DNA from: Escherichia coli
GTDB lineage: Bacteria; Pseudomonadota; Gammaproteobacteria; Enterobacterales; Enterobacteriaceae
Assembly: GCF_050920415.1 (NCBI RefSeq)
Contig: NZ_CP169309.1
Direction: 5' to 3' (one strand)
Length of the DNA: 64,000 nucleotides
Shown: in pieces, positions 2,036-2,336 of the stretch
Position numbering within the stretch: the stretch's first letter is position 1
Layout: the number at the start of each line of letters is the position of its first letter
Made by a program: the position numbers and the translations under genes
Notes under the pieces: generated by a model
Told to the model about the DNA's origin: nothing
The model's input: the letters and a program-made list of their open reading frames with translations, nothing else
Databases searched by the model: none

Positions 2036-2336
2036 CTCTACTCTCTCCTTTCGAACATTCTTTGTTCAGACTTCACCATTTTTTAGAGGGTGGTGATATC
2101 AAAATTCGCTCATTTTTATGCCCATCCGTTGGACTTCCTTTTCTGCATTAAAAACAAGTATTGTTTCAATGAGATAAGATTTTCTATGTGATGAAATGAA
2201 AATAATGTAGAGGGAATTTTATCCACAATCCTGATGAACGGGTTCAATTCTGATTGGAATTTGAAAAAGCAGGTGATTTACTGATGTGCGAGCGTACGTC
2301 AGTGGCTGCTGGCCTGAGCGCGGAGGTGTGCGAAAT

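Follow-up and report, generated by a model that had tools for sequence, protein, structure and literature searches.

The spacer beside yicS in Escherichia coli as the probable border of the eip (selC-B) island, not integrated at selC, with a predicted chaperone-translocator promoter

Does an island that has historically been named after the tRNA gene selC owe its position to selC at all, and what lies in the DNA by which it joins the chromosome? The question is raised by positions 2036-2336 of a 64,000-nt stretch of Escherichia coli DNA (RefSeq assembly GCF_050920415.1, contig NZ_CP169309.1), hereafter the window, in which accessory type III secretion system (T3SS) genes abut the small backbone gene yicS. 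The original prediction, made from the letters of the window, placed an island junction here and offered two options: either the island is not a classical selC-integrated element, or its selC-proximal border has been rearranged. We conclude with good confidence that 2036-2336 is the yicS-side border of the known eip (selC-B) island, that this island is not tRNA-integrated and that the spacer carries the likely promoter of its chaperone-translocator operon.

The junction is bounded by the start of eicA at 2035 and by the yicS stop codon at 2337-2339, which leaves a gap of 301 bp. eicA (1538-2035, minus strand) was recognised by profile search as a class II translocator chaperone gene of the SicA/SycD/LcrH family (TIGR02552, 113 bits where the cutoff is 104.8; E=6.9e-44 with the SicA model; both NCBIfam). 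It is the first gene of the operon eicA-eipBCD, and its product is 45% identical to Salmonella SicA. Further into the island lie the first 430 codons of eipB (1-1291, minus strand, with the ATG at 1291), a gene that exits through the left end of the window and encodes a translocator of the SipB/YopB family (NCBIfam PRK15374, E=3.8e-27), annotated as a SipB/YopB translocon subunit in the genome records L001 and L022. On the other side of the gap follow yicS (2337-2630, minus strand; NCBIfam YicS_fam, E=3e-38) and, from the open reading frame (ORF) list and annotated genomes, the backbone genes nlpA (2839-3657, plus strand), yicL (3661-4584, minus strand) and setC (4695-5879, minus strand), the region 2839-5879 being ~98% identical to K-12. 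The selC gene for tRNA-Sec (6518-6612, minus strand, 3' end at 6518), called by ARAGORN and by Rfam (RF01852, 83.8 bits), lies 4.18 kb off. A junction beside yicS, about 4 kb from selC, and the order selC, setC, yicL, nlpA, yicS are what had been predicted.

In genomes whose junction region is identical or ~96% identical to that of the window, the eip gene set eicA-eipB-eipC-eipD-eilA-eaeX (air/iatC) is complete. In L001 and L022 the whole island reads nepI / iatC, eilA, a sipD-like gene, eipC, eipB, a small ORF, eicA / yicS, and beyond yicS come nlpA, yicL, setC, a rhuM fragment and tRNA-Sec. The position is also that of the eip (selC-B) island, between yicM (nepI) and nlpA/yicS, with setC-yicL-nlpA separating it from selC. 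The eip islands of enteroaggregative E. coli (EAEC) 042 and of sequence type (ST) 69 E. coli (Ren 2004; Sheikh 2006; Fox 2020) have the same genes in the same order and position, and likewise no selC repeat. EAEC 042 differs in carrying the phage-like element selC-A directly at selC, of which the window has no counterpart, and older descriptions of the island leave out yicS; nothing essential differs from the window. The ~17-kb block iatC/air-eilA-eipD-eipC-eipB-orf-eicA supplies ETT2, the second type III secretion system of E. coli, with translocators, a chaperone and a HilA-like regulator.

Alignment with K-12, which the original prediction had proposed for placing the insertion point, fixed both breakpoints. 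In K-12, nepI and yicS are convergent neighbours 40 bp apart; the breakpoints fall at the end of nepI (...ATGAAG) and at the yicS stop codon (ACATATCC...), with 51 bp between them, and in the island haplotype ~17.2-17.5 kb stand in place of this 51-bp empty-site spacer. The 51-bp architecture recurs in four further island-free E. coli lineages, all five lineages sampled being identical in architecture. Among 5,426 complete E. coli genomes, over which all counts below were made, the empty contiguous nepI-yicS junction was present in 4,644 (85.6%) and the island-type gap, 95-100% identical to ours, in 739 (13.6%) and at no other place in these genomes; together the two states account for 99% of the genomes. 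The nepI-yicS slot is a clean two-state polymorphism in E. coli. When positions 1-2700 of the window were used as the query, the yicS part was matched in 5,394 genomes, at least 80% of the query was matched in only 732, and in the remaining genomes homology began at 2339, within the yicS stop codon. These T3SS genes are far from being conserved backbone present at the site in most E. coli, which had been named as an observation that would speak against an island junction.

Signatures of integration were then sought at the junction and across the island. The 25-mer of the selC 3' end, with up to three mismatches, matched only selC itself in the window; the corresponding 15-mer, with up to three mismatches, had no match in 2036-2336; and 15- to 25-mers of the selC 3' end, allowing 2-5 mismatches on both strands, had none in the full island copy of L001. 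Nor do direct or inverted repeats join the two island borders beyond chance: the longest shared word, of 8 bp, was reached in 187-193 of 200 shuffles. A CAGGT shared by both island ends and the 9-mer AATCCTGAT were considered as candidate repeats and rejected as not significant. No integrase or transposase is annotated in the islands of L001 and L022, although no dedicated search for degraded integrase fragments was made. The absence of a selC-derived repeat, as first noticed in the spacer, holds for the gap, the window and the whole island, and no integrase came to light among the annotated genes. The island edge (~2285-2336) is 4.18 kb from the selC 3' end, with yicS, nlpA, yicL and setC in between, and the base composition deviates on the island side (guanine-plus-cytosine (GC) content 0.40 in 1-2035 and 0.34 in 2036-2285, the window as a whole having 0.486). 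Since integrase, att-like repeats and a target duplication beyond chance are all lacking, a single ancient entry by illegitimate or flank-mediated recombination is most likely; homologous recombination in the flanks would later have spread the island or removed it.

That the eip (selC-B) island is not selC-integrated is correct but already published. In Fox (2020), which quotes Sheikh (2006), selC-B stands behind setC, yicL and nlpA, all backbone genes, and the phage-like selC-A of EAEC 042 is bounded on one side by selC and on the other by 21 bp that repeat the selC 3' end; a 2024 review has eip inserted "between the backbone genes yicM and nlpA", and the 042 genome paper still calls the island "inserted next to selC". 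With the classical selC islands (the locus of enterocyte effacement of enteropathogenic and enterohaemorrhagic E. coli, SHI-2, SPI-3 and selC-A of 042) the eip island shares low GC content, virulence-type cargo and proximity to selC. Those islands, however, encode a P4-type integrase and run from the 3' end of the tRNA gene to a direct repeat derived from it; all three features are missing from the eip island. The ETT2 island differs too: it lies next to the tRNA gene glyU and encodes the secretion apparatus, whereas eip lies away from tRNA genes, and its products are translocators, a chaperone, a regulator and an adhesin. ETT2 and eip are partner systems with a similar evolutionary pattern, ETT2 predating the split of E. 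coli and E. albertii and being lost or degraded in most E. coli, and eip co-occurs with intact ETT2 (Fox 2020).

The core genes do follow selC in the predicted order, but not immediately: ~640 bp of 30%-GC DNA precede setC. Within this interval, a tblastn search with full-length RhuM found a degraded rhuM fragment (6221-6439, minus strand) corresponding to residues 121-194 at 56% identity, with an in-frame stop and gaps, which RefSeq annotates as a pseudogene. It is the relic of an older selC-associated element. In the B2-like E. coli L004 and L005, setC is replaced by a full-length rhuM and another gene; because only a remnant of rhuM persists here and full-length copies occur in other lineages, the selC-setC interval is itself relic island DNA. 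A full-length rhuM also lies directly 3' of selC in E. albertii.

The gap itself is composite. Its GC content is 39.5% against 48.6% for the window, and the best compositional split falls after 2285, dividing it into 2036-2285 (0.34) and 2286-2336 (0.65). The description of a 300-bp AT-rich spacer was right as to length, and as to composition for 2036-2285; the remaining 51 positions are GC-rich. With the right half of the empty-site spacer, 2291-2311 agree at 17 of 21 positions (shuffle p ~0.02), and the alignment of gap and empty-site spacer is colinear from CAGGT at 2270. Judged from composition and this match, 2286-2336 is probably a diverged, GC-rich 3' flank of yicS, belonging to the backbone and not to the island, with the island edge at ~2270-2290. 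A terminator scan and RNA folding downstream of yicS gave no intrinsic terminator or stable hairpin (z-score +1.0). The yicS-proximal linker of E. albertii was tried against the E. coli empty-site spacer and discarded, the two having no significant similarity.

The spacer had been presumed to carry the promoter of the chaperone-translocator operon, and comparison with related promoters supports this: 2036-2130 likely holds a chaperone-dependent promoter of the InvF/MxiE/YsaE class, with a predicted start near 2063. Its most conserved element is an 18-bp activator box, ATGAGCGAATTTTGATAT (2096-2113, minus strand), which overlaps the -35 position and has the properties of boxes of this class, namely a length of ~17 bp, overlap with the -35 and the core CG..TTTT..A.A. 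A candidate extended -10, TGgTGAAGT (2070-2078, minus strand), follows, its hexamer 20 nt downstream of the box; from this register we infer a transcription start at ~2063 (minus strand), and a Shine-Dalgarno sequence AAGGAG (2045-2050, minus strand) stands 9 nt before the eicA ATG at 2035. In a MAFFT alignment of the E. coli and E. albertii eicA spacers, ~2248-2336 (the initial 90-130 bp after yicS) could not be aligned; alignment resumed at ~2247, so that 2224-2247 (minus strand) marks the distal limit of the alignable spacer. Within the alignable part, the 24-nt block TAAAAATGAGCGAATTTTGATATC (2118-2095), which contains the box, is identical in the two species. ATGGTGAAgTCTG (2079-2067) and the ribosome-binding site are conserved as well, the latter with its GGAGA core, and the spacers are otherwise moderately conserved, about 65% by eye. 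A promoter scan found no stand-alone sigma-70 promoter on the eicA strand, as expected because the promoter would be activator-dependent. In the passages of the open-access literature that use the name eicA, no description of its promoter was found.

Six genes for SicA-family chaperones, and eilA in two species, have the box upstream of them, with 0-7 mismatches. The form in a third eip-like island (L018) is identical to that of E. coli eicA (ATGAGCGAATTTTGATAT), and the others read ATGAGCGATTTTTGATAA before the chaperone gene of L012, ATGAGCGAAACTTGATAT before Yersinia enterocolitica sycB, TTGGGCGTTTTTTGAATG before Salmonella sicA, ATGAGCGTTTTTTGATAG before E. coli eilA and ATGAGCATTTTTTGATAG before E. 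albertii eilA. The Salmonella form is probably the InvF site of Darwin and Miller (2001), judging from its position relative to the -35. A -10-like hexamer stands 20-21 nt downstream of the box in all eight promoters, as TTTAAT in Salmonella PsicA, TATAAA in L012, TTAAAT at sycB and, at eicA, a weak TGAAGT with a TG extension. By our calculation, the chance of an 18-mer with up to two mismatches in a 170-bp upstream region is ~3e-6. PsicA (InvF with SicA), the Shigella MxiE-box promoters and PsycB of the Yersinia Ysa system share with the eicA promoter the box at the -35 and the hexamer in register. In PsicA, PsycB and eicA the box precedes a SicA-family chaperone-translocator operon, and the core CG-(W)2-TTTT-G/T-A is common to all of these promoters, the MxiE-box ones included. 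The Shigella MxiE box, GTATCGTTTTTTTANAG, has been reported to lie 33 bp upstream of the mRNA 5' end, with G6, T10, T12 and A16 essential; of its 16 positions, 12 are matched by the eilA box and 9 by the eicA box, and the equivalents of the four essential bases are present in both. Compared with PsicA, the eicA box has 7 differing positions of 18, and compared with the MxiE consensus 7 of 16; the gene for its presumed activator, EivF, belongs to ETT2 and lies elsewhere in the genome, beyond the window, and the function of the box is predicted. The publication on InvF chromatin immunoprecipitation sequencing gives no motif. One candidate comparator, P0010, labelled Salmonella, was rejected as another T3SS chaperone and not SicA, which was then recovered by its exact sequence.

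By analogy with PsicA (InvF and SicA), the MxiE boxes (MxiE and IpgC) and PsycB (YsaE and SycB), the AraC-type activator EivF of ETT2 together with free chaperone, EicA or YgeG, would bind the eicA box, and translocator synthesis would rise once secretion is active. A copy of the box also lies ~75-92 nt upstream of eilA in E. coli (L001 16825-16842, minus strand) and E. albertii (L009, ~15290), preceded by a terminator-like hairpin after eipD. This arrangement suggests that eilA is in the same regulon as eicA, and the eilA box would close a positive loop with the HilA-like regulator. A further copy with three mismatches, ATGAGCTATTTTTGATAG, occurs at 6083-6100 (plus strand) in the 30%-GC gap between setC and selC, and also in L001; its CG core is missing the G, no obvious gene lies downstream, and it is probably a chance match or a relic promoter. 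The third eip-like island mentioned above (L015/L018, GCA_009799345.1, labelled E. coli) occupies another site in the chromosome, near uxuA-uxuB-uxuR and DUF2686 genes, and has all its genes on one strand: an inverse autotransporter, a chaperone 55% identical to EicA with the identical box at its promoter, three translocators and a HilA-like regulator. Yet another box copy was seen at L018 7639-7656, upstream of an unannotated 275-aa ORF.

How old is the island at this site? Over 2339-2835, covering yicS and the yicS-nlpA intergenic region, the window carries a divergent haplotype block with 78-89% identity to K-12, against ~98% beyond the start of nlpA. The island-linked yicS (82% DNA and 88% protein identity to K-12 yicS) differs from other alleles mainly in the signal peptide and at synonymous sites. 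Across the genomes the block is bimodal: 746 records share 95% or more identity with the window and 4,620 share 80-90%, and the 746 nearly mirror the 739 island-positive genomes. Linkage with the island is near-complete; L003, with an island-type yicS and an empty site, is a rare exception. Divergence and linkage together suggest that the linked haplotypes are old and that the island has long occupied this site. The island-linked yicS is 82% identical to that of E. albertii, the other alleles 74-76%. In assemblies labelled E. albertii (L008, L009 and L017) an eip-like island lies in the arrangement yicL-yicS-[island]-yicN-adeQ, nepI and nlpA being absent there; in L008 and L017 eipB is split into ORFs of 501 and 83 aa. 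Between the two species the flanking proteins are 98.6% (AdeQ), 95.7% (YicL), 93.3% (YicN), 89.8% (SetC) and 78% (YicS) identical, and the island proteins 76% (EilA), about 70-71% (EicA), 58% (IatC), 38% (EipD), 26% (EipB) and 25% (EipC). E. coli EipB and E. albertii EipB are as distant from one another as either is from SipB or YspB, and eipB and eipC DNA of the E. albertii type was absent from all 5,426 E. coli genomes; the translocators may have diverged by cassette replacement or by fast evolution.

The slot carries other cargo in Citrobacter. Citrobacter enshiensis (L023) has the order yicL-nlpA-(acetyltransferase)-yicS-[glycoside hydrolase family 1 gene]-nepI-...-yicN-adeQ, and C. freundii has a beta-glucoside phosphotransferase system operon in this slot, which makes the yicS-nepI slot a recurrent cargo site, independent of selC. 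A RelE/ParE and helix-turn-helix (HigBA-like) toxin-antitoxin pair was seen between yicN and nepI in L001 (2757-3371), L003, L005, L022 and C. enshiensis (L023 10157-10807); K-12 does not have it. A scan of species-representative genomes for EicA returned a single match, on one contig of a metagenome-assembled genome labelled Collinsella, and is uninformative on other species. That contig (L007) is 10.7 kb long, encodes a 98%-identical EicA and is most likely stray E. coli DNA in the bin.

Two other histories have to be weighed against this one. The island might once have been a classical selC-integrated element whose border was later rearranged, so that setC-yicL-nlpA-yicS moved in and att repeat and integrase were lost, which is the second option of the original prediction. 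Its name, its distance of only 4.2 kb from selC, the rhuM relic as a sign that other elements did integrate there and the truly selC-bounded selC-A of EAEC 042 all lend it some appeal. Yet yicL-nlpA-yicS-nepI-yicN-adeQ is contiguous in 85.6% of E. coli, and the backbone order is kept in E. albertii and in C. enshiensis, the latter having no selC called within the ~7 kb read on the yicL side of yicS; moreover, no selC copy, repeat or integrase was found, and the breakpoints on either side coincide exactly with the stop codons of nepI and yicS. A backbone whose order is the same irrespective of selC leaves this history scarcely credible, and it can be regarded as already largely refuted; of the two options it is the first, an island not classically selC-integrated, that stands, given the 4.18 kb, the missing repeat and integrase and the nepI-yicS slot. 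More attention is due to the idea that a few E. coli lineages, with a nepI-yicS site that was empty at first, received the island recently and separately, as opposed to its being an old feature of the genus since lost, or never acquired, by most lineages: the island is found in only 13.6% of genomes, its GC content is 0.34-0.40, the Citrobacter outgroups carry other cargo and not T3SS genes, and the species-representative scan gave no other carrier. But E. albertii has the same architecture in the same place, the empty site is architecturally identical in all five sampled lineages, and the partner system ETT2 has been reported to be older than the split between E. coli and E. albertii. Near-perfect linkage to a yicS haplotype that differs from the others by 11-18% also implies old haplotypes, and we consider such recent insertions unlikely.

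The promoter assignment has its own competitors. PsicA, PsycB and the MxiE-box promoters depend on an AraC-type activator plus chaperone and are not known to depend directly on HilA. The presence of the same box at PsicA, PsycB and, more loosely, the MxiE-box promoters speaks against the idea that the HilA-like EilA itself binds the eicA box, activating the operon directly and regulating its own gene, as does the overlap of the box with the -35, which has been reported for the InvF site of PsicA; an OmpR/ToxR-type winged-helix protein would, in addition, be expected to bind an internal direct repeat, and the box has none. Direct binding by EilA would nevertheless agree with the box upstream of eilA and with the requirement of EilA for eicA and eipBCD expression, and we rate it as rather improbable. 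It is also conceivable that the gap has no promoter of its own and that transcription of eicA-eipBCD comes from yicS by read-through; yicS is located upstream of eicA, runs in the same direction and is not followed by an intrinsic terminator or a stable hairpin. A 24-nt invariant block and a box and -10 arrangement kept across genera are hard to explain without a promoter; read-through as the sole source of transcription is thus very doubtful, though it may add to eicA expression.

Several points count against the reading that we prefer, of an eip island border with an activator-dependent eicA promoter. Only ~2 kb of the island is inside the window, and nearly identical genomes supplied the remainder. 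GC content and a weak homology, whose p of ~0.02 precedes correction for several tests, are the grounds for placing the island edge at 2270-2290. The -10 candidate TGAAGT is without the usual A at position 2, and the eicA box agrees with the Shigella MxiE consensus in just the 9 of 16 positions given above. [quoted passage not shown] Finally, EivF with YgeG has been reported to fail to activate MxiE-box genes in E. coli; the specificity of the box must therefore differ, and the failure is not evidence for the EivF model.

Taking the observations on both ends of the island together, a wider history is conceivable, though less likely than not. In it, the nepI-yicS slot would be an old replacement hotspot, independent of tRNA genes and free of integrase, and the T3SS translocator module would have been a presence/absence polymorphism since before the split of E. 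coli and E. albertii. Its regulatory ends would have been conserved (the box promoters, eicA at 70%, eilA at 76%) and its translocators swapped or diverged down to ~25%, while linkage to a 17-kb indel would have locked the 0.5-kb yicS flank in divergent haplotypes. The box at eicA and eilA would then mark out a regulon of EivF, through which secretion activity is sensed and the HilA-like regulator receives feedback.

A few other features of the locus may be recorded. Between eicA and eipB the ORF list has a 60-aa ORF (1346-1528, minus strand) of doubtful reality: a search of NCBIfam gave no match, E. albertii has in its place a 70-aa ORF without real similarity, and Salmonella has no gene at the equivalent position. 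An Rfam scan of 1-7000 returned tRNA-Sec as the sole match, with none in the gap. In strain MFDS1022581, otherwise 100% identical to window positions 1-2700, the insertion sequence IS2 lies inside eicA (L019 2298-3623), and in DA33137 IS1 cuts the gap at ~2220 (L021 4184-4242), joining it to the ykgR region.

That the eip island is only loosely "at selC" is settled and published, and its importance lies mostly in getting annotation right. With the exact breakpoints and the genome counts, eip-positive strains can be typed simply in silico, among them extraintestinal pathogenic E. coli of ST69, ST38 and ST405 and EAEC. The gap is described as a probable composite of island DNA and yicS flank, and the predicted box, -10 and start form a testable promoter model that bears on whether ETT2 and eip make up a working, secretion-regulated system. 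The locus appears to be old in Escherichia and tied to a divergent yicS haplotype, which is relevant to how an island can persist without mobility genes.

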